Positions 1-51,808 of a stretch of 64,000 bases of DNA are shown here, piece by piece. The number at the start of each line of letters is the position of its first letter. Position 1 is the stretch's first letter. The stretch is from Chloroflexota bacterium (GTDB lineage Bacteria > Chloroflexota > Dehalococcoidia > E44-bin15): positions 58,022 through 122,021 of the forward strand of contig JAXHUE010000001.1 in the NCBI GenBank assembly GCA_034189655.1, written 5' to 3'. The translations under genes were made by a program, and so were the position numbers. The notes under the pieces were generated by a model. That model had not been told where the DNA came from. It ran no database searches and worked only from the letters and a program-made list of their open reading frames with translations.

Positions 1-72
1 GGCTCCCTCCTGGCCGTGCCGCGGCCGAGGTCTACGAACAGCACGGAGCCGGCGTACCCGGGCACCGCCATG

Positions 73-330
73 TTAGCCCTGCCTCTTCTCCTGGACCAGG
101 GCCCCGTAGGGGCAGTAGCGGGCGCATATGCCACAGTTGTCGCAGCGCTCGGTGAAGGAGATCTGGTACTCGTCCTCGGCCCCCACGAGGCGGCGCACCC
201 TTATGGCTGCCTTCGCCGGGATGAACGCCTTCTCGAACCTCAAAGAGCAGCGCAGCTCGCAGATCAGGCAGCCGGTGCACCTGGCGGCATCTACCCTTAT
301 GGGCGGCCCCTTTCGCTTCGTCTGGGTCAC
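73..330 (-). CDS. 4Fe-4S dicluster ferredoxin
   Basis: 85 aa with two CxxCxxCxxxCP motifs (CTGCLICELRC, CDNCGICARYCP). Last gene of the minus-strand corrinoid methyltransferase operon. Confidence 0.7.
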   Translation of the reverse strand: MTQTKRKGPPIRVDAARCTGCLICELRCSLRFEKAFIPAKAAIRVRRLVGAEDEYQISFTERCDNCGICARYCPYGALVQEKRQG

Positions 331-334
331 GCCT

Positions 335-1384
335 TTACCTCCTCTCGCTGTAGCTCCCGTACCTCCGTCCGCACTCCAGGAAGTGGATGACGTTCTCCAG
401 GGGGGCGTTATCGGGCACCTGGCACCCGGAGCACAGGATATACCTGTAGTCGCTGGGCGCGGCGGCGGTATCGATGCTCTCCCTGACCCTGCGCTCGATC
501 TCCTCCCTGGTGCCCTCGACGTAGGTCTCGCCGGCGAAGTTACCGATCACCGCCACCTTCCCCTGGGAGGCCTCCACCATCTTGGCCAGCGAGGCCGGGG
601 CGTCTATGCTGATGCCGTCGACCCCCATGGAGACCAGGTCCTCCATGATGGGGTCGGTGTAGCCGCAGATGTGGAGGCATATCGGCTTATCGGTGTACTG
701 CCTGACGTAGTCGATGGTCTCCTGGAGATAGGGCTGTACCCACTTCCGGAACATCTTGGGGGATATCACGCTGCAGCCGGCACTGGGGTCGGCAATGGTG
801 AGGCACCCGATGTTGGCCTCGACGAGCCCCCGGGCCACCAGCTTGGCGAACTCGGTGGTGAAGCGGAGCAGCTCGTGGACGCGCTCGGGGTCCTCCTTGG
901 TATCGTAGATGGTGTTCTCGATCCCGCGCATCATCATCGCCGTAGACCAGGGAGAGACGCTCATGGCATCAATGGTGGTCTCCGGCAGCTCTTTATCGGC
1001 CAGGTTGCATATCTCCTGGTAGTAGTGGAGGCGCTCGTAGCTCTTGATGTCGGGCATCGGGGGCAGTGTGAGCCTCTTCCCCTCCCCGAACGCCAGCCCA
1101 CCCATGCCGCGCTCTTTAAGCTCCTGAAACGATACCCCGAAGAGCTCGGCAAAGAGGCCGGGGTCGCCCACCAGCATGGTGATGCCGTCCTGGGGGACGA
1201 CATCGTACAGGGTGACCATGGCCTTCACGAACTTCTCTGGCTGGGTGCGCACCTCCTTGGGGGTGACGCCGGCACGGCCGAGGACGGGTATGAAGCTCTG
1301 CATGGTCCTCACCGGTATCCTGTCGGTGCGCGCGCCGCCGAACGCCGACGCGATGTGGTCTCTCCCGGTATAGTGCCCCGTCAT
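335..1384 (-). CDS. corrinoid methyltransferase, uroporphyrinogen-decarboxylase (URO-D) fold, MtaA/CmuA-like
   Basis: Length and sequence (TIM-barrel URO-D-like, IADPSAG, HICG motifs) are typical of MT2-type methylcobamide methyltransferases. Start moved to the ATG at 1384, preceded by GGAGGA. The track ORF begins at upstream GTG/alternative codons. Confidence 0.75.
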   Translation of the reverse strand: MTGHYTGRDHIASAFGGARTDRIPVRTMQSFIPVLGRAGVTPKEVRTQPEKFVKAMVTLYDVVPQDGITMLVGDPGLFAELFGVSFQELKERGMGGLAFGEGKRLTLPPMPDIKSYERLHYYQEICNLADKELPETTIDAMSVSPWSTAMMMRGIENTIYDTKEDPERVHELLRFTTEFAKLVARGLVEANIGCLTIADPSAGCSVISPKMFRKWVQPYLQETIDYVRQYTDKPICLHICGYTDPIMEDLVSMGVDGISIDAPASLAKMVEASQGKVAVIGNFAGETYVEGTREEIERRVRESIDTAAAPSDYRYILCSGCQVPDNAPLENVIHFLECGRRYGSYSERR

Positions 1385-1448
1385 GGTCTCTCCTCCAATC
1401 GAGATCGTCTCGCCCATCGGGATGGGCCCCCACACTACGGGGGTGAGG

Positions 1449-2087
1449 TCAGCCCATCCCCAGTATCTCCTTTGCCCTGGTCACCGCCGAGGCGGCATCG
1501 GAGGCATAGCCATCGGCCCCTATCTCGTCGGCATAGCTCTGGGTGACGATGGCCCCGCCGATCAGGATCTTCACCCTGCCCTTGAGCCCGGCCTGGGCCA
1601 GGGCCTCGACGGTCTCCTTCATGCAGGGGATGGTAGTGCCCAGGAGCGCCGACATGCCGATGAGAGGGGCATCGTGCTCCAGGGCCGCAGCGACGAAGCG
1701 CTCCGGCGACGTGTCCACCCCCAGGTCGATGACCTCGAAGCCGGCCCCCTTCATCATCACCCCCACCAGGTTCTTCCCGATGTCGTGGACGTCACCCCTC
1801 ACCGTGCCCAGTATCACCCTGCCCAGGGGCTTGACGCCGGCACCGACGAGCAGCGGCTCCAGTATCTCCATGCCCTGCTTCATCGCCTTGGCGGCGAAGA
1901 GCACCTCAGGGAGGTATATATCCCCCCTCTTGAACTGCTCCCCCACCTCGTTCATGCCGGCGATGAGGCCCTCGTTGAGCACCCTCTCAACAGATATACC
2001 CTGGTCGAGTGCTGTCCTCACAAGCTCCGTGACCGTATCGGCCTCACCCTCGATTAAATTCTCCACGATACCCTTAAGCTCGTCCAT
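1449..2087 (-). CDS. cobalamin-binding corrinoid protein (B12-binding domain)
   Basis: DxHxxG B12-binding signature GDVHDIGKN followed by a Rossmann-like B12-binding domain. N-terminal helical cap domain. 212 aa. Confidence 0.85.
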   Translation of the reverse strand: MDELKGIVENLIEGEADTVTELVRTALDQGISVERVLNEGLIAGMNEVGEQFKRGDIYLPEVLFAAKAMKQGMEILEPLLVGAGVKPLGRVILGTVRGDVHDIGKNLVGVMMKGAGFEVIDLGVDTSPERFVAAALEHDAPLIGMSALLGTTIPCMKETVEALAQAGLKGRVKILIGGAIVTQSYADEIGADGYASDAASAVTRAKEILGMG

Positions 2088-2106
2088 CGTTTACCCCCAA
2101 GGCACC

Positions 2107-2901
2107 CTATTTCCCGGTGAACCGGGGCCTTCTCTTCTCGGCAAAGGCCCGCATCCCCTCCATGAGGTCCTCGCCATAAGAGAGCCGCTCCACCAGCTCC
2201 GGCTCACAGACATATATATCCCCGATGTTGGCCGCCGTGGACGCGTTCACGATCTTCTTTGCCATCCTCACCGCGACGGGGGCCCTGGCCGATATCTTGT
2301 CTACCATCTCGTGTGCCGCCGTCATGAGCATATCGGGGGGAACCACCTTGCACACGAGCCCGATACGCAGCGCCTCCTCGGCGTCCACGTTCTCGCAGGT
2401 CATGATCATCTCCTTGGCCTTCGACGGTCCCACGATCCGGGCCAGGCGCGGCGTGCACCCCCAGGTATAGAAGAGCCCCACGTTGGCCTCCGGGATGCCG
2501 AATCGGGCGTTCTGTGATGCGATGATGAAGTCGCACCCGTGGGCAACCACAAACCCCGCCCCCAGGCAGACACCGTTCACCGCGGCGATGGTGACCTGCT
2601 CTAAGCTCTCCAGCTTGCGAATGAAGTCGTGCCCCGCCATCTGCTGCAGCCTCATGCTGTGATGCGGCGACACGTTGCCCTGCCCCGAGCCCAGGCCGAT
2701 CAAGTCCGCCCCCCCGGAGAAGGCAGTGCCGGCACCGGTGAATATGACGAACCTGGTATCGGGGTCCATCTTAAGCTCGGTGAAGAGGTGGTCGAACTCA
2801 TCGAGCATGCGCCCATTCATGGCATTCCTCTTCTCCGGCCGGTTCAGGGTCACCGTCACGGTGGAATCAGACCTCTCCACGATGAGTGCCTCGTACTCCA
2901 T
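2107..2901 (-). CDS. enoyl-CoA hydratase/isomerase (crotonase family)
   Basis: Crotonase-fold sequence with GAGTAFSGGADL oxyanion-hole region. RBS AAGGGGGTGA upstream of ATG. Confidence 0.85.
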   Translation of the reverse strand: MEYEALIVERSDSTVTVTLNRPEKRNAMNGRMLDEFDHLFTELKMDPDTRFVIFTGAGTAFSGGADLIGLGSGQGNVSPHHSMRLQQMAGHDFIRKLESLEQVTIAAVNGVCLGAGFVVAHGCDFIIASQNARFGIPEANVGLFYTWGCTPRLARIVGPSKAKEMIMTCENVDAEEALRIGLVCKVVPPDMLMTAAHEMVDKISARAPVAVRMAKKIVNASTAANIGDIYVCEPELVERLSYGEDLMEGMRAFAEKRRPRFTGK

Positions 2902-2922
2902 GCGTCACCCCCTTTTCGTCAA

Positions 2923-3603
2923 TTAGTGCACTGTCCTTCGGTATGCGCATCCCTTCATGTTGCAGTGGCGGCAGGGGTTGGTCCGCCCCACCCCCACAAT
3001 CCCCGCCCCCATGCCGACACAGAAGGATACCGACTTCCTCGGTATCATGCTGGAGTGCTCGTTCAGACAGACCCCGATGGCCTCGCCACTCAAGAGAGAG
3101 AAGAGCACCTGCTGCTCCGAGACGTCCCACCTTCCATATCCCGGGCTCGAGCGGGGGCCCACCGCGATGCCCATCTCCGCGGCCCGCTGGCAGACCAGGT
3201 AGTTGACATGGTCGGCCACGCTGTCCGCCGCCACCGAGCCCACGCAGTCCAGGGCCAGGGCCGCGGGATACTCCCCGGCCTCGAAGAGCTGAGACACCCG
3301 CTCCTCCAGCTCAAACCCGATGGTGCATATGGCGACCCCCAGGAGCTGCGCCCCCTGCCACGTGCTCAAGGCGCTCCCCGGCCGAATGGTGAGCCCGCCC
3401 TCCAGGGCCATCGCCCCTGCCCGCAGCTCCCCGACTGCCACCTGGGTATAGACCGCCCTGGGCTCGATGAGGCTGCGGCCCTCTTCAATGCCCCAGGCCA
3501 CCACCTGCCGTATGACAGGCCTGGGGCCCCGCGCCTTGTAGCCCTGCAGCCTCAGCACCTCCCTCTCCTCTATCCTCACCGCTATGCCCCTGATGATCTC
3601 CAT
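2923..3603 (-). CDS. hypothetical protein, first gene of corrinoid methyltransferase operon (possibly MetH activation-domain-like)
   Basis: 226-aa ORF in operon position immediately upstream of crotonase/corrinoid protein. C-terminal cysteine cluster CRHCNMKGC. Assignment to the methionine-synthase activation-domain family is from memory of similar small proteins in corrinoid methyltransferase operons and was not verified. Confidence 0.45.
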   Translation of the reverse strand: MEIIRGIAVRIEEREVLRLQGYKARGPRPVIRQVVAWGIEEGRSLIEPRAVYTQVAVGELRAGAMALEGGLTIRPGSALSTWQGAQLLGVAICTIGFELEERVSQLFEAGEYPAALALDCVGSVAADSVADHVNYLVCQRAAEMGIAVGPRSSPGYGRWDVSEQQVLFSLLSGEAIGVCLNEHSSMIPRKSVSFCVGMGAGIVGVGRTNPCRHCNMKGCAYRRTVH

Positions 3604-3629
3604 TCCATCTGCCCATCCGTCTCACGGCG

Positions 3630-3658
3630 ATTCTACCACCTGGGAGGCCCAGGGTCAA
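3630..3658 (-). promoter_or_regulatory. sigma70-like promoter TTGACC-N17-TAGAAT for corrinoid methyltransferase operon, with palindrome CCTGGGaggCCCAGG in the spacer
   Basis: Read on the minus strand: TTGACC ctgggcctcccaggtgg TAGAAT, about 20 nt upstream of the ATG at 3603. The spacer contains a 6-3-6 inverted repeat (3639..3653). Confidence 0.45.
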
Positions 3659-3721
3659 AGGGCATCCAGGGAGGGACTTGACGCCCCTCCCCCCATAGAG
3701 GGCCACAGGCCTCTGCTTTCG

Positions 3722-4972
3722 CTATATGCCACTCAGCACGGCGGGTAAGTCGGCCTCGGTGGTGATCACCCCCTCCGCGAGCATGTCTGCTAGCTCGTCA
3801 TCGGAGTAGCCCAGGAGCTCCTTGTAGACGTACTCGTTGTCCTCGCCCAGGCACGGCCCCGCCTTGGAGATATTGTTGGGGGTCCGGGACAGGATATAGG
3901 CAGGGGCATTGTAGGCGTGGCTGCCGATGACCTTGTGCTCCAGGAAGCGGTAGTGCTTGCGCTCTTTGAGCTGGGGGTCATTGAACAGGTCCTCGCAGTT
4001 CTGCACCACGCCGCAGGGCACGCCGGCGTCCTGGAGCATGGCCATGAGCTGGTGAGGGGCGAAGTCCCTGGTCCACTCCGCTATCCTGGCGTTGAGCTTC
4101 TCCTCGTTCTCCTTCCTCGCCATCATGGTGGCGAACGTGGGGTCGTCCAGCCACTCCACGTGCCCCATGACGCAGCAGAGGTTCTGCCACTCCTCCTCGC
4201 TGGTCACGGTGATGGCCACCCAGCGGTCGGCCCCCAGCACCGGGTAGAGGCCGTGGGGTGCCATGTAGGGGTCGCTGTTGCCCATGCGGTTGGCGATACG
4301 CCCGTTTATCATGTAGTCCATCACTGTGGGCGTCAGGAAGTTGACCCCGGCCTCCACCTGGGACTGGTCCAGGTACATCCCCTGCCCCGTCTTCTGCCGG
4401 TGGAGCAGCGCCCCGATGGTGGTCATCATCAGGTACCACGGGGCGATGAAATCGCTGTAGTTGTTGAACAGGGGCAGCGGGTCTCTGTCGGGCCAGCCCG
4501 TCAAGTGAGAGTAGCCGGCATAGGTGACCCCGAACATGCCGTACCCCCCGAAGGTGTTCAGCGGCCCCTTCTGTCCCATCTGGCAGGTGGAGTAGTAGAT
4601 GATGTCCGGCTTTATCTTGCGTGCCTCCTCGTAGTCCAGCCCCAGTGCCTTCATCGAGCCCGGGGTGAAGGACTCGGTGACGATATCGGCCCACTTGATG
4701 AGCCTCCTGGCCACCTCCTTGCCCTTGGGGTGGGTGAGGTCTAGGCTCATGCCGTACTTGCTGGTGTTGTATGCCGTGCCGAAGGCACTGCGGTCTATTC
4801 CGGGGATGCCGTCGCGGAAGGGAAAGGCCGTCCTCAAGGTATCGGGCCTCTTGTGGGACTCAACGCGAACCACGGTCGCCCCGTGCTGGGCAAACTCCCT
4901 CGCCGGCTGGACTCCCACCCCGACCCAGGCGAAATCGGCCACCTTTATCCCCTCGAACACCTGCTTAGCCAT
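3722..4972 (-). CDS. CoA transferase family III (CaiB/BaiF family)
   Basis: 416 aa. Typical N-terminal Rossmann-like region (KVADFAWVGVG), and family-III CoA-transferase length and domain order. Strong RBS GAAGGAGGA. Confidence 0.9.
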   Translation of the reverse strand: MAKQVFEGIKVADFAWVGVGVQPAREFAQHGATVVRVESHKRPDTLRTAFPFRDGIPGIDRSAFGTAYNTSKYGMSLDLTHPKGKEVARRLIKWADIVTESFTPGSMKALGLDYEEARKIKPDIIYYSTCQMGQKGPLNTFGGYGMFGVTYAGYSHLTGWPDRDPLPLFNNYSDFIAPWYLMMTTIGALLHRQKTGQGMYLDQSQVEAGVNFLTPTVMDYMINGRIANRMGNSDPYMAPHGLYPVLGADRWVAITVTSEEEWQNLCCVMGHVEWLDDPTFATMMARKENEEKLNARIAEWTRDFAPHQLMAMLQDAGVPCGVVQNCEDLFNDPQLKERKHYRFLEHKVIGSHAYNAPAYILSRTPNNISKAGPCLGEDNEYVYKELLGYSDDELADMLAEGVITTEADLPAVLSGI

Positions 4973-5004
4973 CTCTATCCTCCTTCTCGCCTATGCCTCG
5001 CATC

Positions 5005-6279
5005 CTAGATGACGCCCCTGGTCTTTAAGAGCACCATCTGCTCCCTGGAGAGCCCCAGCCCCTTCACATAGACCTCCTCGTTGTGCTCCCCGATGAGCGG
5101 CGCCCGGCGCTGCGGCTGGTAGGCCGGCAACTCCGTCCATTTCACCGGCCACCCCGGATAGGTGAGCGTATCCCCCAGTTCGGGGTGCTCTATGCTGGTC
5201 CAGAACTCCCTCGCCACAAGCTGCGGGCTCTCCACCACGTCCCTTGCATCGCTCGCGGGCACCACGAGTATCTCCCGCTTCAGCGCGGCCTCGAGCAGCT
5301 CGGCCTTGGTCTTGGTGAGGAGGTACTCGCTTATGGACCTGTCCAGCTCGTTCCTCTGCTCCTGCGTTATCTGCGAGGAATCGTAGCTGCTCCAGTCATA
5401 GTCCTTTAAGTCCTGGCAGTACCCCTCGGCGTTGGCCATCTTCACCAGCTCCGTCGAGGACTTGACCATGCCCGCCTGGGCGCCGCCGCCCGACATGTGC
5501 AGCACGTGGCCGTCCTTGCAGGGCCACATTATCCTGCCGTAGAGGGGGCCCGGTGGCGTGGGCCGCGGCGACATGAAGCCGGGGCCCATGCCGCGGTAGT
5601 TGACCTTTAAGATATCCCATATCTCGGAGGCGATCATGAGCGAGAGCACTACCCCCTGCTGGCAGGACACGTCCACGTGCTGCCCCTCGCCGCTCATCAC
5701 GCGGTGGTAGTGGGCCATCATGGAGCCCATGGCACCGTGGAGGGCCCCCAGGAAATAGAACTGGGGGGCGCTTATGCGGTTGGGCTGGCGGTCGAACTCG
5801 CCGTAGAGGCGCACCATCCCCGCCATGGATACCCCGACGAGGTCAGTGGTCTTATAGTGAGCATAGGGGCCGTTCTGGCCGAACGGCGTGATCGAGGTCA
5901 TGACCAGGTCGGGCCTGATCTTCTCCAGCTCCTCGTAGCACAGGCCCAGGCCGTGCAGGTAGCCCGGCTCGAAGGACTCGATGACGAAATCGGCCCCGGC
6001 CACCATACTCTTGAAGAGCTCCTGGCCGTCGGCGGTCTCGATGTCAAGGGTGATGCCCTTTTTGTTCATGTGAGCGAAGAACCAGTAGAGGCTCATCTCT
6101 GGATGGGGGATGTCCATGTAGAAGGGGCCGATGTTTCGCGAGGCGTCGCCACCAGGGGGCTCGATCTTGATGACCTCGGCACCGATATCGCCGAGGAGCT
6201 TGCCGCAGAGACTCCCTACCTCGTTTGTGAGGTCGAGCACCCGATAGCCACCCAGAAAAGAGGTCATCTCACCACTCAT
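5005..6279 (-). CDS. CoA transferase family III (CaiB/BaiF family)
   Basis: Paralog of the 3722..4972 gene (YRVLDLTNEVGSLCGKLLGDIGAEVIKIE). Start corrected to the ATG at 6279, preceded by GAGGAGGAAGG. The track ORF is extended upstream. Confidence 0.9.
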   Translation of the reverse strand: MSGEMTSFLGGYRVLDLTNEVGSLCGKLLGDIGAEVIKIEPPGGDASRNIGPFYMDIPHPEMSLYWFFAHMNKKGITLDIETADGQELFKSMVAGADFVIESFEPGYLHGLGLCYEELEKIRPDLVMTSITPFGQNGPYAHYKTTDLVGVSMAGMVRLYGEFDRQPNRISAPQFYFLGALHGAMGSMMAHYHRVMSGEGQHVDVSCQQGVVLSLMIASEIWDILKVNYRGMGPGFMSPRPTPPGPLYGRIMWPCKDGHVLHMSGGGAQAGMVKSSTELVKMANAEGYCQDLKDYDWSSYDSSQITQEQRNELDRSISEYLLTKTKAELLEAALKREILVVPASDARDVVESPQLVAREFWTSIEHPELGDTLTYPGWPVKWTELPAYQPQRRAPLIGEHNEEVYVKGLGLSREQMVLLKTRGVI

Positions 6280-6554
6280 GTACCTTCCTCCTCTAGTCTC
6301 GAATCCGGCAGTTTGCTCACGAGAGACCACGTGCGTCGACTATAAGTCTACATAGCATCCCCCCTCTACATGTCCTGGCTGAAGGTAGACGGATACACAG
6401 GCCATGTCACGTGGTCTACGTCTTTGGTCGAGAGAAAGGGTTGGCAGAACGTGAGGCCTTGGGCCTGGGAGGGATTTCCTCTGTCAGCAGAAATACGCTC
6501 TAATTGGCTTTTGGAAACCGCGATGTACCCCAGGGGGGGGTACAAACGCGCCGA

Positions 6555-6584
6555 TTATACCCAAGAAGGAGGGGTTCCGTCAAG
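6555..6584 (-). promoter_or_regulatory. candidate promoter TTGACG-N18-TATAAT far upstream (about 270 nt) of CaiB gene
   Basis: Minus-strand read: TTGACG gaacccctccttcttggg TATAAT. TATAAT is rare in this GC-rich sequence. It implies a long leader. Confidence 0.3.
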
Positions 6585-6667
6585 GGCATGGCCGCCCACG
6601 GTGTCCGCGGCCACATCCCGTGTGGCTGCACGCCGCGGCAGATAGGGCCAGGGCCAACGGAGACCGC

Positions 6668-7999
6668 CTACAGTACGGGCAGGTACCTCTTGAGCTCGAA
6701 CTCGGTCACCTGGGTGCGGTACTCGTCCCACTCTATCTTCTTGTTGGTGATAAAGGAGGTGAAGACGTGGTCGCCCAGGGCCTTGCGCATCACCTCGCTG
6801 GACTCGGCGAGCTGGATGGCCTCGAAGAGGCTCGAGGGCAGCGTCTCGATGCCCAGCCCGACCCGCTCATCCTCGCTCAGCCTATAGACATCGGCCTCCA
6901 CCGGAGGGGGGAGCTGGTACCCCTTTTCGATCCCCTCGATCCCGGCGGCGAGCATCACCGCGAAGGCCAGGTAGGGGTTGCACGCCGGGTCGGGGGAGCG
7001 GTACTCCACCCTGGTGGCATTCTCCTTGCCCGGCTTGTACTGGGGGACGCGGAGCAGCGTGGAGCGATTGCGGCGCGCCCAGGAGACGTATACCGGCGCC
7101 TCATAGCCGGGCACCAGGCGCTTGTAGGAGTTCACCCACTGGCTGGTGACCGCGGTTATCTCCGAGGCATGGCGCAGGAGCCCCGCCATGTAGCCCTTGG
7201 CGACAGCGGAGAGGTAGCACTCATCGTCACCGTCGAAGAAGGCGTTCCTCTCCCCTTTGAAGAGCGACTGGTGCACGTGCATGCCGCTGCCGTTTATGCC
7301 GAAGACGGGCTTGGGCATGAAGGTGGCGTACACACCGTACTTGAGCGCCACCTGCTTCACCACCAGGCGGTAGGTCATGATATTATCGGCCATCTTCATG
7401 GCATCGGTATACCTCATGTCGATCTCGTGCTGGCTGGGAGATACCTCGTGGTGGGAGTACTCCACGCCGATGCCCATCTCCTCCAGCGCGAGCACGGTCT
7501 CCCTCCGTAGGTCGGTGGCCCAATCGAGGGGTGTCATGTCGAAGTACCCCCCCTGGTCCAGCGGCTGGGTGCCCTCCGAGTCGCGGAAGTAGAAGTACTC
7601 CAGCTCTGGCCCCACGTAGAACGCGTAGCCCATGTCGGCGGCCCGCTTCAGGTTCCTCTTCAGCACGTACCTGGGGTCGCCCTCGAAGGGGGTGCCCTCT
7701 GGCCTCAAGATGTCGCAGAACATGCGGGCCTCGGCGTATTCCCTGGGCCGCCACGGCAGAAGCTGGAAGGTAGCGGGGTCGGGCAGGGCGATCATGTCGC
7801 TCTCGTCGATGCGGGCGAACCCCTGGATGGAGGAGCCATCGAACCCCATCCCATCCTCCAGTGCCGTCTCCAGCTCCTCCACAGTGATGGCAAAGCTCTT
7901 GAGGAAGCCCAGGATATCGGTAAACCACAGCCTTACGAACTTGACGCCGTGTTCCTTTGCCATCCTGAGGACGTCGCCCCTGGCCCCTTCCGCGCACAT
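6668..7999 (-). CDS. glnA: glutamine synthetase type I
   Basis: 443 aa with canonical GS-I motifs (FDGSSI, KPVFGINGSGMHVHQSLF, NRSTLLRVP). RBS GGAAGGAGGGG before the ATG at 7999. Confidence 0.95.
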   Translation of the reverse strand: MCAEGARGDVLRMAKEHGVKFVRLWFTDILGFLKSFAITVEELETALEDGMGFDGSSIQGFARIDESDMIALPDPATFQLLPWRPREYAEARMFCDILRPEGTPFEGDPRYVLKRNLKRAADMGYAFYVGPELEYFYFRDSEGTQPLDQGGYFDMTPLDWATDLRRETVLALEEMGIGVEYSHHEVSPSQHEIDMRYTDAMKMADNIMTYRLVVKQVALKYGVYATFMPKPVFGINGSGMHVHQSLFKGERNAFFDGDDECYLSAVAKGYMAGLLRHASEITAVTSQWVNSYKRLVPGYEAPVYVSWARRNRSTLLRVPQYKPGKENATRVEYRSPDPACNPYLAFAVMLAAGIEGIEKGYQLPPPVEADVYRLSEDERVGLGIETLPSSLFEAIQLAESSEVMRKALGDHVFTSFITNKKIEWDEYRTQVTEFELKRYLPVL

Positions 8000-8028
8000 G
8001 GCACCCCTCCTTCCCTGTTATTACCGCA

Positions 8029-8057
8029 TTATATATGACGGAGAGCCACCGTTACAA
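8029..8057 (-). promoter_or_regulatory. glnA promoter TTGTAA-N17-TATAAT
   Basis: Minus strand: cTTGTAAcggtggctctccgtcataTATAATg, about 25 nt upstream of the glnA ATG. Confidence 0.5.
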
Positions 8058-8305
8058 GCGCAGGGCACGCTTGACAGCGAAAAGATAAAGCACTAAAGTG
8101 TACTCGCCGAGTCCACTCTTTCCTTGCTCGGCCTGTGTAGAGAAAGGCGCACGCGAGCCACGTCCGGGCCCCTTGCCCGGGATCTGAACCGTTGCCGGCA
8201 CAGCGCAGAGGCCACCTCCCTTTCACGACGGCGACCTGGCGAGGCCGGCACCATGCCTGATACCCCCCATACCCCACCGAGCGCAACAACTACAGGAGGT
8301 ATAGA

Positions 8306-9091
8306 ATGGCGCTACCGAAGATATACGATACCCCCGCCGAAGCGGTGGCCGACATCCCCGACGGTGCCGTCATCATGTCGAGCGGTTTCGGCGGTGCCGG
8401 GGGCCGGCCGGTGCACCTCGCGGTCGCCCTCTCCGCGAGAGGGGTGAAGGACCTCACCATCATCGAGCAGACCATGGGTGTGCTCGGGCTCGACCTCTTA
8501 GGCACGCCGCTTGCCAACATGGCCGGCCTCAATGTCCCCCCAGACTACAAAGACCTGGTAGACCTGTATGTGAACAAGCAGGTGAAGAAGCTCATCACAC
8601 CCGTCATCCCCATAGCGGGGAACCCCACCATAGTGGAGGCCCTGAAAGAGATGATCGGGCTGGACGTAATGGAGATAGAGCTCCTCCCCCAGGGGACCTT
8701 CGCCGAGAGGATCAGGGCCGGGGGTGCGGGGATAAAGGGGTTCTTCACCGCGGTCAGTGCCGGCACCATCATCGGCGAGGGCAAGGAGACCAGGGTCATC
8801 GATGGCGAGCTGTGCGTCCTGGAGCCCCCGATGAGGGCGGACTACGCCCTGATACGTGCGTACAAGGCCGACAGGCTGGGCAACCTGATATACCGGGGGA
8901 CCTCTCGGAGCTACGGCCCCATCATGGCCACCGCTGCCGACGTGACCATCGTCGAGGTCGATGAGATCGTGGAGGTAGGGGAGCTCGACCCCGAGGTAGT
9001 GGTCACCCCCGGGATCTACGTCGACCGCATGGTAAAGGTGCCGCCACCTTTCTGGACCTACAACGAGCTGTGCATAAGGGGGGAGAGATGA
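8306..9091 (+). CDS. CoA transferase subunit A (3-oxoacid/glutaconate CoA-transferase, AtoD/ScoA-like)
   Basis: 261 aa with the SSGFGGAGGRP glycine-rich loop typical of the alpha subunit. Overlaps the next gene by ATGA. Confidence 0.85.
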   Translation: MALPKIYDTPAEAVADIPDGAVIMSSGFGGAGGRPVHLAVALSARGVKDLTIIEQTMGVLGLDLLGTPLANMAGLNVPPDYKDLVDLYVNKQVKKLITPVIPIAGNPTIVEALKEMIGLDVMEIELLPQGTFAERIRAGGAGIKGFFTAVSAGTIIGEGKETRVIDGELCVLEPPMRADYALIRAYKADRLGNLIYRGTSRSYGPIMATAADVTIVEVDEIVEVGELDPEVVVTPGIYVDRMVKVPPPFWTYNELCIRGER

Positions 9092-29560: not shown

Positions 29561-30751
29561 ATGGCACAGGCCCTGTCACATATCAAGGTGTTAGACCTGG
29601 GCCACCACATCGCCGGTCCCTACTGTAGCCGCCTCCTCGCCGACTACGGCGCAGAGGTGATAAAGGTAGAGATGCCCGGCGAGGGCGACGGGGCACGGAG
29701 GCAGGGGCCCTTCCTACACGATGTGCCCCACCCGGAGAAGAGCGGCCTGTTCCTCTACTTAAACTACAACAAGAGGGCCATCACCCTGAACTTGAAGACC
29801 GATAGCGGCAGGAAGCTCTTCAAGGAGCTGGTGAGGGATGCCGACGTCCTGGTAGAGAACTTCGAGCCCCGGGTGATGGCCGGGCTGGGACTGGACTACC
29901 GGGCACTGGAGGAGATAAACCCCAGGCTGGTCATGACGTCTATCTCCAACTTCGGCCAGAGCGGGCCCTACCGCGATTTCAAGGCGAGCGAGCTCGTGGT
30001 CTACGCCATGGGCGGCCTGATGTACATCATCGGCGCCTACGACCGCGAGCCCCTAAAGCACGGGCTCTCCCAGGGCCAGTACCTCGCGGCGGCCACCGCG
30101 GCCTCCGCCACCATGGCCGCCATCTACGCCCGCGGCGACGAGGGGGTGGGCCAGCACGTCGATGTTGCCATCGCCGAGTCCATCATGATGGGCATGTTCA
30201 TGCACGCCGGGCCCTACGGCTACCAGGGCGCGGTGATGAGGAGACAGCCCAAGGTGGGCGCCATCTTCGACGACGTGATGACGACCAAGGACGGCTACAT
30301 CGCCCCCGTCTTCTACGGCTACGTGGACTGGGATGCCTTCTCCCGCTTCATGGACTGCCCCGAGCTCGCCGACCCCAAGTTCGGAAGCCTCGCCGGCCGT
30401 CTCATGAACTCGGCGGAGTTCGAGGCACTGCTCCTGCCCAAGATCGCCCAGTGGTACAAGGACGACCTGTTCCACGCCGCCCAGGAGTGGCGTTTCGCCT
30501 TCGGCATAGTCAACACACCAGAGGACCTGGTTAAGTGTCCCCAGCTTCAGGAGAGGGGCTTCTTCGTCGATATCGACCACCCGCTGGCGGGCAGGCTCAC
30601 CTACCCGGGCCCACCCTTCAAGATGAGCCAGACGCCGGCCCAGGTGCACAGGGCGGCCCCCCTCATGGGACAGCACAACGAGGAGGTCTACGGCGCCCTG
30701 GGATACACCAGGGCAGACCTCGTCGCATTGAGGGAGAGGGGGGTCATCTGA
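29561..30751 (+). CDS. CoA transferase family III (CaiB/BaiF family)
   Basis: 396 aa. KVLDLGHHIAGPYCSRLLADYGAEVIKVE N-terminus. Paralog of the other CaiB genes. Confidence 0.9.
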   Translation: MAQALSHIKVLDLGHHIAGPYCSRLLADYGAEVIKVEMPGEGDGARRQGPFLHDVPHPEKSGLFLYLNYNKRAITLNLKTDSGRKLFKELVRDADVLVENFEPRVMAGLGLDYRALEEINPRLVMTSISNFGQSGPYRDFKASELVVYAMGGLMYIIGAYDREPLKHGLSQGQYLAAATAASATMAAIYARGDEGVGQHVDVAIAESIMMGMFMHAGPYGYQGAVMRRQPKVGAIFDDVMTTKDGYIAPVFYGYVDWDAFSRFMDCPELADPKFGSLAGRLMNSAEFEALLLPKIAQWYKDDLFHAAQEWRFAFGIVNTPEDLVKCPQLQERGFFVDIDHPLAGRLTYPGPPFKMSQTPAQVHRAAPLMGQHNEEVYGALGYTRADLVALRERGVI

Positions 30752-30753
30752 CC

Positions 30754-32124
30754 ATGAGCGGTAAGCCACTCTCTGGAGTCCGTATCCTCGACCTGGGGGC
30801 GGCGTGGGCCATCCCCATCGCCACCAGGCACCTGGCCATGCTGGGGGCAGAGGTGATCCACATCGAGTCCTGTGCCCGCCCCGATGTGAGCAGGTACGGG
30901 CAGCACGCCGAGAACACCACCGAGGGCCGCTTCTGGGAGACCGGCGGCCGCCACAACCACATCAACATGAACAAGAAGGCCATCACCCTGGACCTGACCA
31001 GGGACGAGGGCGTGCGCCTGTTCAAGGAGCTGGTGAAGATAAGCGACGTAGTGGCGGAGAACTTCTCGCCGCGGGTGATGAGGAACCTGGGCCTGCACTA
31101 CGAGGCGCTGCGGGAGATACGGCCCGACCTCATCATGATATCCTCCAGTGGCTTCGGCCACAGCGGCCCGTGGGCCCACTACGGCGCGTGGGGGATGGGC
31201 ATGGAGCCCACCGGCGGCATCAGCCACTTCACCGGCTACATCGAGGGGCGCCCCATCAAGTCGGGCATACCCTATACCGATATCCCCAGCGCCATGCACG
31301 GCACCCTGGCCATGCTCATCGCCCTCGACTACCGCCGCCGCAGCGGCGAGGGCCAGTTCATCGACCTCTCGCAGAACGAGGTATCGGTCCAGCAGATCGG
31401 CGAGGCCATCATGGACTACACCATGAACGGCAGGGCGCAGGCCCGCATGGGCAACCGCCACCCCTCGATGGCCCCCCACGGCTGCTATCGCAGCCAGGGC
31501 AACGATAAGTGGATAGCCATCGCGGTATCGAGCGACGAGGAGTGGCAGGCCCTGTGCCACGCCATGGGAGACCCTCCGTGGAGCAGCGAGGAGCGCTTCA
31601 AGGATGCCCTCTCCCGGTGGCACAACCAGGACGAGCTCGACAGGCTCATCGAGGAGTGGACCGAGGCCAGGGACCACCACGAGACGATGCACACCCTGCA
31701 GCGGGCGGGCGTCCCCTGCGGGGCGGTGCTCACCCCCAAGGAGCTCTTCCTCGACCCCCACTACAGAGAGCGGGGCTACATACAGATGGTGGCCCACCCC
31801 AGGGAGGAGGGCATGGAGCACCTGGGGACAAGGCCGTACATTGGCTTCCCCTGGAAGATGTCCCGGACGGAGACCACCCTCGAGCGCTCACCCATCCTCG
31901 GTGAGCACAACGAGTACGTCTTCGGCGAGCTCCTGGGGCTGCCCCGCGAGGAGATGGAGAAGCTCGAGCGCGAGGGCATCATCGGCAGAGAGCCCCTCTC
32001 CATGGAGCCCACGTCGGTGGGCTCGACCATAGTGCCCCTCTCCCTGATGAAGGAGATGGGCCGCATCGAGGAGTGGGACGAGGACTTCCACCAGATACTG
32101 GGCCTCGACACGGGGCCGCCGTGA
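30754..32124 (+). CDS. CoA transferase family III (CaiB/BaiF family)
   Basis: Start at the ATG at 30754, 3 nt after the upstream stop. The upstream 70-aa extension in the track ORF (overlapping the preceding gene in another frame) was rejected. Confidence 0.9.
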   Translation: MSGKPLSGVRILDLGAAWAIPIATRHLAMLGAEVIHIESCARPDVSRYGQHAENTTEGRFWETGGRHNHINMNKKAITLDLTRDEGVRLFKELVKISDVVAENFSPRVMRNLGLHYEALREIRPDLIMISSSGFGHSGPWAHYGAWGMGMEPTGGISHFTGYIEGRPIKSGIPYTDIPSAMHGTLAMLIALDYRRRSGEGQFIDLSQNEVSVQQIGEAIMDYTMNGRAQARMGNRHPSMAPHGCYRSQGNDKWIAIAVSSDEEWQALCHAMGDPPWSSEERFKDALSRWHNQDELDRLIEEWTEARDHHETMHTLQRAGVPCGAVLTPKELFLDPHYRERGYIQMVAHPREEGMEHLGTRPYIGFPWKMSRTETTLERSPILGEHNEYVFGELLGLPREEMEKLEREGIIGREPLSMEPTSVGSTIVPLSLMKEMGRIEEWDEDFHQILGLDTGPP

Positions 32125-50445: not shown

Positions 50446-51705
50446 TTAGCGCGGGCCCCTGTGCACCCGTACCACCCCGTCTGCGGCCAGCCGCTCGATA
50501 TCGCCCTCGCTGTAGCCCAGCCCTTCGAGTATCTCCGCGGTGTGCTGTCCCAGGAGCGGTGGGGGCAGCACGGCACTCCCCGGCGTCCGCTTCAGCTTCA
50601 CCGGTATCCCCAGCATGTCGAGGTGGCCCCGGGTGGGGTGCTCCATGCCGACGAGCATCTCGTTGGCCTCCACCTGGGGGTGGTCGAACAGCTCCCGGTA
50701 GGTGAGGCAGGGGTCGCAGCGCAGCCGGTGCTCCTTGAAGAGCCGCTGCCACTCGGCCCTGGTCTTCTTGCTGAAGGCCTCGTCGAGTATGGCGTAGAGC
50801 TCCTCGGCGTGGGCAAAGCGCGCCCCATCGGTGGCGAAGCGGGGGTCTTTCTCGATGTGCTCCACGCCGAGCACGCGGCAGAAGACGGGCCACGAAGGGC
50901 CCACCCCCATCATGGCGAGCACATCGCCGTCCTGGGCAGGGAAGGGACAGAACACCGGGCTGCCTCGCCCCGCCCTGGTGCGCTGCACCCCATCTGCCAG
51001 GTACGTCGACATCTCCGTGGTCTGCAGTGTCATCACGGTATCGAGCTGGCTCACCGAGAGCTCCTGCCCCACCCCCGTCCTCTCGCGGGTGAACAGTGCC
51101 AGCATGATGCCGTAGGCGGTGAGGATGGCGCCGCCGTGGTCGATGAAGAGGAAGGGAACCATGGAGGGCGGGCCGTCGGGGGTCCCCATCTGGCTGATCA
51201 CCCCACCCATGGCCTGCGACCACATGTCCCCGCCGACGCGGTGGGCCAGCGGCCCCCGCTCTCCGAAGCCGTACACCGAGCAGTAGATGATAGCGGGGTT
51301 GAGCCCCGATATGACGTCGTAGCCCAGGCCCAGGCGCTCGATCACGCCGGGGCGGAAGTTCTGCAAGAAGACGTCGCTGCCCGCGGCCAGCTTCAGCACA
51401 ATCTCCCGGCCCTGCTCCGCCCTGATATCGATGGCCAGGCTGCGCTTGCTGCGGTTGTGCCCCAGCCACATGCCGGCATCCAGGGGCTCCTCCCGCTCCA
51501 CGTCTTCCCTGTACAGGTCGTCCATGGCCGCGGGCCGGCCTTGCCTGATGGCCTCTCCCTGCACCCGCTCCACCTTGATGACGTCGGCCCCCATGTCACC
51601 CAGCATCATGGCGGTGAGCGGGCCCATCATGGCCTGGGTGAGGTCTAATACCTTTATCCCCTCCAGCGGCAGGGCAGCCCGTTGCTCTCTCTCCATGCAG
51701 TTCAA
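50446..51705 (-). CDS. CoA transferase family III (CaiB/BaiF family)
   Basis: 419 aa. KVLDLTQAMMGPLTAMMLGDMGADVIKVE N-terminus. Fifth CaiB paralog in the window. Confidence 0.9.
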   Translation of the reverse strand: MNCMEREQRAALPLEGIKVLDLTQAMMGPLTAMMLGDMGADVIKVERVQGEAIRQGRPAAMDDLYREDVEREEPLDAGMWLGHNRSKRSLAIDIRAEQGREIVLKLAAGSDVFLQNFRPGVIERLGLGYDVISGLNPAIIYCSVYGFGERGPLAHRVGGDMWSQAMGGVISQMGTPDGPPSMVPFLFIDHGGAILTAYGIMLALFTRERTGVGQELSVSQLDTVMTLQTTEMSTYLADGVQRTRAGRGSPVFCPFPAQDGDVLAMMGVGPSWPVFCRVLGVEHIEKDPRFATDGARFAHAEELYAILDEAFSKKTRAEWQRLFKEHRLRCDPCLTYRELFDHPQVEANEMLVGMEHPTRGHLDMLGIPVKLKRTPGSAVLPPPLLGQHTAEILEGLGYSEGDIERLAADGVVRVHRGPR

Positions 51706-51808
51706 CCCCCTACGCTCTCACGAGTGGGGAGGTATGCCCCGGCATACCGGGCACGGCCCCGGGGTGGCACGGACGTTGAGACCGGCGCCGCCGGGCCTCC
51801 CCCAGCGG

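Follow-up and report, generated by a model that had tools for sequence, protein, structure and literature searches.

A conserved corrinoid methyltransferase unit with a single-glutamate crotonase and an aldehyde oxidoreductase in Dehalococcoidia, a possible module for S-methyl demethylation

We analysed a stretch of 64,000 nucleotides from a Chloroflexota bacterium of the class Dehalococcoidia (assembly GCA_034189655.1, genome G000 in what follows; the whole stretch, G000:C1:58022-122021, is called the window) and, in particular, the minus-strand genes at its beginning, which encode a corrinoid methyltransferase of the uroporphyrinogen decarboxylase (URO-D) superfamily and its neighbours. The methyltransferase belongs to a conserved core that consists of a reactivation protein, a crotonase with only one catalytic Glu, a corrinoid protein, the methyltransferase itself, a ferredoxin and a tungsten-type aldehyde:ferredoxin oxidoreductase (AOR). 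We tentatively interpret this unit as a corrinoid-dependent S-methyl demethylation module joined to the coenzyme A (CoA) thioester and aldehyde handling of the carbon skeleton, and we would give this interpretation a probability of around 45%. By analogy with known systems, our best reading of the substrate would be a methylthio-carboxylate, such as 3-methylthiopropionate, in the form of its CoA ester.

The host genome comprises 1.79 Mb in 57 contigs, it is 97% complete and its GC content is ~64%. The 18 kb to the left of the window edge were added to the analysis. The loci or contigs used for comparison are labelled with L and a number, and the contigs of genome G000 with C and a number. Gene neighbourhood tables were built on tblastn; the greedy caller of open reading frames (ORFs) got strands wrong in this DNA of 64% GC. 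The first-pass annotation, made from the letters of the window, had called seven genes on the minus strand, and all of them are present where it had placed them. The features of the region, in window positions, are the following:

1..71, minus strand: 5' end of an AOR-family gene of 620 aa, the last gene of the unit (full gene L003:16209-18071 = G000:C1:56230-58092)
73..330, minus strand: 2x[4Fe-4S] ferredoxin of 85 aa (Fer4 family matches; two CxxCxxCxxxC motifs in the translation)
335..1435, minus strand: URO-D superfamily corrinoid methyltransferase, MtaA-like (PF01208, E 1e-50, residues 25-359)
1449..2087, minus strand: corrinoid (B12-binding) protein of the MtbC/MtgC type (PF02607 and PF02310)
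2107..2901, minus strand: crotonase-fold protein of a distinct subfamily (PF00378, E 6e-59)
2923..3603, minus strand: stand-alone MetH reactivation domain protein, TM0269-like, of 226 aa (PF02965, match to 1j6r, AlphaFold/Foldseek)
3630..3658, minus strand: promoter-like element TTGACC-17-TAGAAT, with TG (consensus scan only)
3722..4972, minus strand: family III CoA-transferase, BbsF-like subunit (PF02515, E 2e-92)
5005..6330, minus strand, with a plausible alternative start at 6279: family III CoA-transferase, BbsE-like subunit (PF02515, E 5e-76)
6554..6583, minus strand: promoter-like element TTGACG-18-TATAAT upstream of the CoA-transferase pair (consensus scan)

The order crotonase, corrinoid protein, methyltransferase, ferredoxin and AOR is repeated in the independent contigs L008, L088 and L104. 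It is also found with variations in L009, where we read a corrinoid-to-folate methyltransferase (MT2), a flavoprotein, a ferredoxin, an AOR, the reactivation protein, the crotonase, the corrinoid protein, the methyltransferase and a second AOR. Because the gene order recurs in independent contigs, the clustering of these genes is beyond chance. The ferredoxin is kept between the methyltransferase and the AOR in L008, L088, L089 and L104, with an identity of 76-83%, the corrinoid proteins of the syntenic loci are 64-69% identical, and the reactivation protein stands beside the methyltransferase/corrinoid pair in nine loci. Furthermore, the AOR adjoins the methyltransferase also in a Clostridia contig (L014) and in an unassigned metagenome contig (L107), and the crotonase subfamily adjoins distant methyltransferases in two Deltaproteobacteria contigs (L028 and L062) and in a metagenome contig (L139). 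The first-pass annotation had pointed to the embedded crotonase as unusual, which is borne out, and the arrangement is also conserved across loci. A literature search for the combination of crotonase, corrinoid methyltransferase and AOR genes gave no match.

Regarding the limits of the unit, the intergenic gaps within the block 73-3603 range from 4 to 64 bps. The crotonase gene lies between the reactivation and corrinoid protein genes with gaps of 19-21 bps, the ferredoxin gene is separated by 4 bps from the upstream methyltransferase gene, and the AOR starts (MAVPG) 1 nt past the ferredoxin stop, at window position 71. It had been proposed that the operon leaves the window and that a substrate-specific methyltransferase (MT1) may lie beyond the edge. 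The operon does continue to the left, but only the AOR is there. Beyond it we found convergent plus-strand genes, a phosphoribosyltransferase and a signal peptidase I, and therefore the unit ends with the AOR. Neither an MttB/MtgB-type MT1 nor an O-demethylase nor a RACo gene occurs left of the window edge up to the operon end; as to the RACo that the first-pass annotation had suggested looking for there, the candidate activase is the 2923-3603 protein, inside the unit. A 314-aa ORF downstream of the AOR was discarded as a shadow ORF, with no Pfam match, a shadow-type composition and real genes on the opposite strand.

The true start of the methyltransferase is likely at ~1384, which gives a protein of 349 aa, and its relatives have 344-349 aa. 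Its zinc triad, His255-Cys257-Cys338 in the numbering of the 366-aa form, is invariant in 26 aligned homologues and aligns with the LHICG and GC motifs of MtaA (4ay7) in a profile search of the PDB (E 8e-32). The family profile reaches only E 2e-6 against CdmB (9rui), which belongs to the O-demethylase/haloalkane clade. In the URO-D superfamily a His-Cys-Cys zinc sphere is the mark of the enzymes that transfer methyl groups from or to sulfur or selenium, whereas the O-methyl enzymes have one or both Cys ligands replaced (PMC10418091), and CdmB, in the O-demethylase/haloalkane clade, is without zinc (PMC13222342). The MT1 enzymes of that clade (OdmB, VdmB, MtvB, MtoB and CdmB) were considered as a possible family for our protein and rejected, with both Cys retained and MtaA far closer than CdmB. 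The zinc site likewise disfavours the quaternary-amine substrate that had been put forward for the cassette, and it points to a methyl-sulfur compound. The enzyme is rare, and at E 1e-60 we found it in 4 of the 301 genomes sampled from the class.

Two URO-D paralogues on contig C28, with RACo and TetR, served as an internal control, and they are without the triad. They are part of a second URO-D system in the same genome (G000:C28:8000-18372, L169), with the order sensor kinase, CoA-transferase, corrinoid protein, TetR, RACo, URO-D, corrinoid protein and URO-D. Since its URO-D proteins lack the His-Cys-Cys triad, this second system is probably of the O-demethylase type.

The corrinoid protein combines a PF02607 cap with a PF02310 Rossmann B12 domain and carries the His-on motif D99-V-H101-D-I-G104. 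The first-pass annotation had made its corrinoid reading depend on the DxHxxG ligand, and this ligand is present in the translation. All the scores against curated models are below the cut-offs, with 201 bits for MtbC (cut-off 350), 192 for MtgC (310) and 186 for TIGR02370 (215). Compared with the corrinoid proteins of the genome's own MttB systems it is 49% identical.

The 2923-3603 protein had been described as an unknown protein with Cys residues. The cysteines are there, in a C-terminal Cys211-x2-Cys214-x4-Cys219 tail that is invariant in 7 homologues, but the protein is not an unknown one, as the proposed check with hidden Markov models and further comparisons assign it to the MetH reactivation domain, which binds S-adenosylmethionine (AdoMet). 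The PF02965 match is marginal (25.6 bits, cut-off 25), the sequence matches TM0269 (PDB 1j6r) with E 6.5e-5, and a Foldseek search with the AlphaFold model (pLDDT 84.8) ranks 1j6r first (E 5e-13, TM 0.70/0.80) and MetH reactivation domains next. Moreover, the protein has an RxxxGY motif (R151-S-S-P-G-Y156), also invariant in 7 homologues, which we take to be the AdoMet-binding motif, as in MetH. This reactivation protein is likely the activase of the corrinoid protein. A paralogue is located directly before the cluster of MttB, MT2, MttB and corrinoid protein genes on contig C57, and as it heads that cluster, MetH-type reactivation proteins evidently serve stand-alone corrinoid methyltransferase systems.

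In order to know which half of the methyl transfer the URO-D enzyme may carry out, we surveyed the partner genes in 163 loci with methyltransferase homologues (identity 32-72%). A pterin-binding MT2 was found in 18 of them, RACo in 9 and MttB in none. Therefore, the URO-D enzyme is more likely the substrate-specific MT1 than an MT2, and the earlier description of the cassette as an MT2 without its MT1 has to be turned around, with MT2 most likely being the component that the operon lacks and that is encoded elsewhere in the genome. The close relatives L009 (59%) and L101 (50%) have a pterin-binding MT2 gene within the cluster. In G000 there are four pterin-binding genes and four MttB genes, and three RACo genes on contigs other than that of the unit. 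There is a precedent for such a role, since MtpA, although it is a member of the MT2 (MtaA/MtbA) family, is an MT1 specific for 3-methylthiopropionate (MMPA) that depends on a separate MT2, and the reaction is uphill by about +20 kJ/mol in the forward direction (10.1101/548461).

Some other methyl-transfer systems were seen along the way. Two non-pyrrolysine MttB-family systems of the same genome (G000:C57:12620-17737 and G000:C3:25101-32110) have two MttB each, together with a corrinoid protein and a pterin-binding MT2; one of them is led by a TM0269-like protein, whose match reads through one TAG, and the other has RACo. In a metagenome-assembled genome of Dethiobacter sp. (L012:8328-15513), a 43%-identical methyltransferase and a corrinoid protein are located between an EamA exporter and an ABC transporter of the OpuAC (betaine/sulfonium) type. 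The same locus encodes a conserved protein of 166 aa that fits into no known family and follows the methyltransferase in L014 and L107 as well.

The crotonase is peculiar in its active site. Alignment to Crt (5z7r) and to the 3-hydroxypropionyl-CoA dehydratase (5zai) places Val118 at the position of the first catalytic Glu and Glu138 at that of the second, so that of the two canonical Glu residues (Glu144 and Glu164 of the rat enzyme) only the second has its equivalent here. Relatives have Val, Ser, Ala or Cys at the first position, and therefore the loss of this Glu extends across the subfamily, which can also be recognised by the motifs PExNxGxFxTWG and CEPELVER. The subfamily is single-copy in the genome, and none of the 18 remaining crotonase homologues exceeds 40% identity. 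The protein is closest to short-chain hydratases. We also considered that it could be a hydratase-lyase and found no support for this identity, with no hydratase-lyase structure among the 44 PDB matches at E<1e-30 and no conserved Tyr in the C-terminal helix. A search of the ESM Atlas with the crotonase returned generic crotonase clusters only.

Two genomes of another Dehalococcoidia family (f15) contain single-Glu crotonase relatives (45-49% identical; L175:5961-8418 and L176:9319-11783) with the motif conserved and an AMP-forming acyl-CoA ligase as their partner, and with no methyltransferase nearby. Given this pairing with an acyl-CoA ligase, the substrate of the crotonase is likely a CoA ester made from the free acid.

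The AOR has both domains of its family, AFOR_N (PF02730, E 6e-62) and AFOR_C (PF01314, E 1e-42). Among solved structures it is nearest to AORs (E 7e-55), with a match that lies mainly in the N-terminal domain. This domain is typical, but the alignment of domains 2 and 3 is poor. The motif for the [4Fe-4S] cluster reads C295-x2-C298-x3-D302, that is, CxxCxxxD instead of the usual CxxCxxxC, and 7 subfamily members have Asp or Glu at this last position. There are 3 AOR-family copies in the genome. One paralogue (G000:C21:12880-14805), 50% identical, lies beside a gene for a Maf/tRNA-methyltransferase fusion, just past which there is a gene of the CO-dehydrogenase/prismane family. We also noticed that 26 nt at the junction of the ferredoxin stop and the AOR start (window 58-83) are 96% identical to G000:C34:87663-87688, which sits after a pterin-binding methyltransferase gene; at both junctions the stop is followed by one base and ATG GCG GTG CCC GG.

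The CoA-transferase pair upstream of the cassette is a predicted BbsEF-like heteromer. For the gene at 3722-4972 the best solved relative is the benzylsuccinate CoA-transferase chain 9fn0_B (E 2e-83) and for that at 5005-6330 it is 9fn0_A (E 3e-65), and the cross-matches to the opposite Bbs subunits are much weaker (1e-24 to 1e-25). Nevertheless, its membership in the pathway is uncertain. It is parted from the cassette by a 118-bp gap that holds a sigma-70-like element (3658-3630, a consensus match only). Furthermore, the genome has 49 family III CoA-transferase genes, ~20 of them in adjacent BbsF-like/BbsE-like pairs, an extreme paralogue expansion, and two more sites fall in the window (~29570-31990, C1:87582-90013, and ~50470-51720, C1:108491-109738). 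The pair is 57-69% identical to its in-genome paralogues and only 37-41% identical to the pairs in L092, L093 and L101; on these values we rejected its orthology with the pairs beside the methyltransferase orthologues. The closest cassettes (L008, L009, L088 and L104) have no such pair. Therefore, considering the number of paralogues and the lack of conservation, the linkage of the CoA-transferases to the cassette, which the first-pass annotation had assumed, is suggestive at most.

Upstream of the pair there is a 388-bp leader (window 6280-6667) with a strong promoter-like site. An Rfam search of positions 1-9000, which include this leader, found no riboswitch or other family. An ECF sigma/anti-sigma pair is also close to the unit, which confirms that the DNA is bacterial.

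Whereas gene identities, motifs and synteny are observations, the following route is our proposal, and so are the MT1 role, the sulfur specificity, the substrate and the functions of the crotonase and the AOR. The URO-D enzyme, acting as MT1, would bind the thioether sulfur at its His-Cys-Cys zinc and hand the methyl group to the Co(I) of the corrinoid protein, from which it would pass to tetrahydrofolate through a pterin-binding MT2, encoded elsewhere in the genome and within the cluster in relatives. When the cobalt falls into the Co(II) state, the TM0269-like AdoMet-binding protein would re-methylate it in a reductive reaction for which the 2x[4Fe-4S] ferredoxin is the putative electron donor. 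The single-Glu crotonase would act on the acyl-CoA of the substrate or of the product, most plausibly in a base-driven beta-elimination of a thiol, which would release methanethiol from 3-methylthiopropionyl-CoA or H2S from 3-mercaptopropionyl-CoA. Such an elimination could pull the otherwise unfavourable thioether demethylation forward. The atypical AOR may oxidise an aldehyde of the pathway, for example methional or an aldehyde product, to the acid and reduce ferredoxin, and the BbsEF-like pair may supply the CoA ester. The zinc site, the MtpA precedent, the need for a CoA ester and a thiol-eliminating crotonase with a single base would all fit a methylthio-carboxylate.

Several points weigh against this interpretation. 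The substrate is identified by analogy and the enzyme activities are predicted; the AOR is the member whose function the data constrain least. As judged by its sequence, the methyltransferase belongs to an uncharacterised subfamily, below every curated NCBIfam cut-off (112 bits against 235 for TIGR01463, mtaA_cmuA; 118 against 244 for NF004889; 96 against 400 for the MtaA equivalog; 83 against 600 for the MtbA equivalog). We found no acyl-CoA dehydrogenase, sulfur-metabolism gene or dedicated transporter within the unit, and the conservation of the cassette does not extend to the CoA-transferase pair. According to the record titles, the relatives come also from freshwater and groundwater samples, where dimethylsulfoniopropionate (DMSP) is scarce. 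Finally, the logic of the genes, namely CoA activation, a hydratase/lyase, aldehyde oxidation and demethylation, also fits methoxylated cinnamates.

This last point leads to the main alternative, which is the O-demethylation of lignin-derived methoxylated acids or aldehydes such as ferulate, vanillin and vanillate. A CoA-transferase would form the cinnamoyl-CoA, the crotonase would be a hydratase-lyase that releases the aromatic aldehyde, the AOR would oxidise it to the acid, and the URO-D enzyme and the corrinoid protein would take the methyl of the methoxy group. Each gene class finds a role in this scheme. Some members of the crotonase subfamily have Ser at the first Glu position (L028 and L139), and a crotonase without the first Glu presumably recalls, by residue mapping, the hydroxycinnamoyl-CoA hydratase-lyase. 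The crotonase and acyl-CoA ligase pairs in L175 and L176 look like ech-fcs pairs, and URO-D enzymes that act as MT1 on phenyl methyl ethers do exist (PMC10418091, PMC13222342). However, we consider this explanation rather unlikely, as the His-Cys-Cys zinc site is not what the O-methyl enzymes of the superfamily have, the profile is far nearer to MtaA than to CdmB, and the crotonase is nearest to short-chain hydratases, with neither hydratase-lyases among its strong PDB matches nor a conserved Tyr in the C-terminal helix. In addition, the genome has on C28 a separate URO-D/RACo cluster without the Cys ligands.

The methyl groups could also flow in the opposite direction, with the URO-D protein as an MT2 that moves methyls from the corrinoid proteins loaded by the genome's MttB-type systems onto a thiol. 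The acceptor would be sulfide, a methionine precursor or a mercapto-acyl-CoA, and the crotonase would provide the thiol through the addition of H2S to an enoyl-CoA. The MtaA-like proteins of methanogens work as MT2, MtbC/MtgC are the types nearest to the corrinoid protein, which shares the 49% identity given above with those of the MttB systems, the thermodynamics favour thiol methylation and the operon is without a folate-type MT2. This is nevertheless quite unlikely when the partner survey is considered, in which MttB never adjoins the methyltransferase and a folate-type MT2 does so in 18 loci. The folate-type MT2 genes inside the clusters of L009 and L101 imply a flow towards folate.

The corrinoid pair and the reactivation protein might also be self-contained, with the crotonase and the AOR as mere neighbours that share no pathway with them. 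Many homologous methyltransferase and corrinoid pairs do occur without crotonase or AOR, crotonase relatives occur without the methyltransferase, and these genomes are rich in AOR and crotonase genes (3 and 19 copies, respectively). We regard this as improbable, because a crotonase subfamily present in a single copy is placed between the reactivation and corrinoid genes with the short gaps mentioned above and accompanies the pair in at least 9 loci, including the Deltaproteobacteria contigs, and the ferredoxin and the AOR are coupled by gaps of 4 bps and 1 nt.

The interpretation offered by the first-pass annotation, in which the cassette is the MT2 and corrinoid half of a quaternary-amine (carnitine/butyrobetaine-like) or methoxy system, with its MT1 elsewhere and a CaiB/CaiD-like channelling into CoA metabolism, appears very improbable now. 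The gene classes do recall caiB and caiD, the genome has four MttB genes and the corrinoid protein resembles MtgC/MtbC. However, no such genes lie past the window edge, and the CoA-transferases reach 84 bits (3722-4972) and 63 bits against the cut-off of 413 of the CaiB equivalog and form a BbsEF-like pair. The MttB systems on C3 and C57 already own a corrinoid protein and an MT2, MttB is missing from all the loci surveyed, and the transferase pair does not travel with the cassette. What does stand from that annotation is the corrinoid methyl-transfer cassette itself, for which a true uroporphyrinogen decarboxylase (HemE) had been named as the contrary outcome: in spite of the PF01208 family match, HemE can be practically discarded, because the protein reaches only 52 bits with TIGR01464 (cut-off 303) and twice that with the MtaA-type models, and the zinc triad aligned with MtaA and the adjoining corrinoid protein do not agree with it.

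Coming back to S-methyl demethylation, the unit would deserve attention in a field where the anaerobic bacterial enzymes for methylated sulfur compounds (DMSP, MMPA and methanethiol) are largely unknown. If the interpretation is true, we have a testable gene set for anaerobic methyl-sulfur breakdown in a group that is abundant in subsurface sediments. One could go further and propose, although we consider it doubtful, that Dehalococcoidia and some other sediment anaerobes have an undescribed anaerobic pathway for methylthio-carboxylates, such as the 3-methylthiopropionate derived from DMSP or methionine. In such a pathway a corrinoid MT1 of the MtaA lineage would feed folate, a single-Glu crotonase would break the C-S bond on the CoA ester, and an Asp-ligated AOR would feed the ferredoxin and a MetH-type reactivation protein that would replace the ATP-dependent RACE. 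Whatever the substrate is, there are three uncharacterised subfamilies that travel together, the His-Cys-Cys URO-D methyltransferases, the single-Glu crotonases and the CxxCxxx(D/E) AORs, and the MetH-type reactivation domain appears to serve stand-alone corrinoid proteins.

Among the known systems, the DmdB/DmdC/DmdD route of aerobic marine bacteria also handles a methylthio acid as a CoA ester, and a crotonase-fold enzyme releases methanethiol and an aldehyde. DmdD retains both catalytic Glu residues. Unlike our unit, that route proceeds without corrinoid chemistry, and it depends on an acyl-CoA dehydrogenase, of which the unit has none. The BbsEF enzyme, a succinyl-CoA:(R)-benzylsuccinate CoA-transferase (PDB 9fn0), resembles the CoA-transferase pair in that each of the two neighbouring family III genes corresponds to a different Bbs subunit, but no fumarate-addition context was seen around the unit and the pair is one of ~20 paralogous ones. 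TM0269 and the MetH reactivation domain (PDB 1j6r and 1msk) share the fold and the RxxxGY motif with the reactivation protein, and TM0269 is also a separate polypeptide; the protein of the unit differs in its extra invariant CxxCx4C tail and in that it would serve corrinoid proteins other than MetH.

The three-component O-demethylase and chloromethane systems OdmABD, VdmB, MtvABC, MtoABCD and CdmBCA (PMC13222342) are similar in their composition of MT1, corrinoid protein, MT2 and activating enzyme, in having a URO-D MT1 and in the transfer of the methyl to folate. However, their MT1 enzymes form a separate clade with the Cys ligands replaced or free of zinc, and their activase is a RACE-type ATPase. 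The Type 1 mlp clusters are bacterial and have MtaA-like His-Cys-Cys methyltransferases with a corrinoid protein, often without a folate MT2, and have been proposed for methyl-sulfur or methyl-selenium metabolism (PMC10418091). They need both Mlp2 and Mlp3 and a Ram/RACE activase, whereas in the unit there is only one URO-D gene and no RACo/RACE, but a MetH-type reactivation protein, a crotonase and an AOR.

In the MtsA/MtsB and fused MtsD/F/H proteins a zinc His-Cys-Cys URO-D enzyme and a corrinoid partner act on dimethylsulfide, methanethiol and MMPA, and a fused corrinoid/URO-D homologue (P0096) is also among the matches. MtsA does both half-reactions with coenzyme M (CoM) as the acceptor, whereas no CoM pathway is expected for the unit and its relatives cluster with a folate MT2. 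The last system to compare is MtpA/MtpC of Methanosarcina acetivorans (10.1101/548461), which likewise joins an MtaA-like methyltransferase to a small corrinoid protein and works as an MT1 specific for a thioether carboxylate that needs a separate MT2 and an activase, the same role that we propose for the unit. The likeness is drawn from the description of MtpA, which is archaeal and whose methyl group ends on CoM, whereas the unit lies in a bacterium with a folate-type MT2, adds a crotonase, an AOR and a MetH-type reactivation protein, and has a methyltransferase that scores under all the curated cut-offs.

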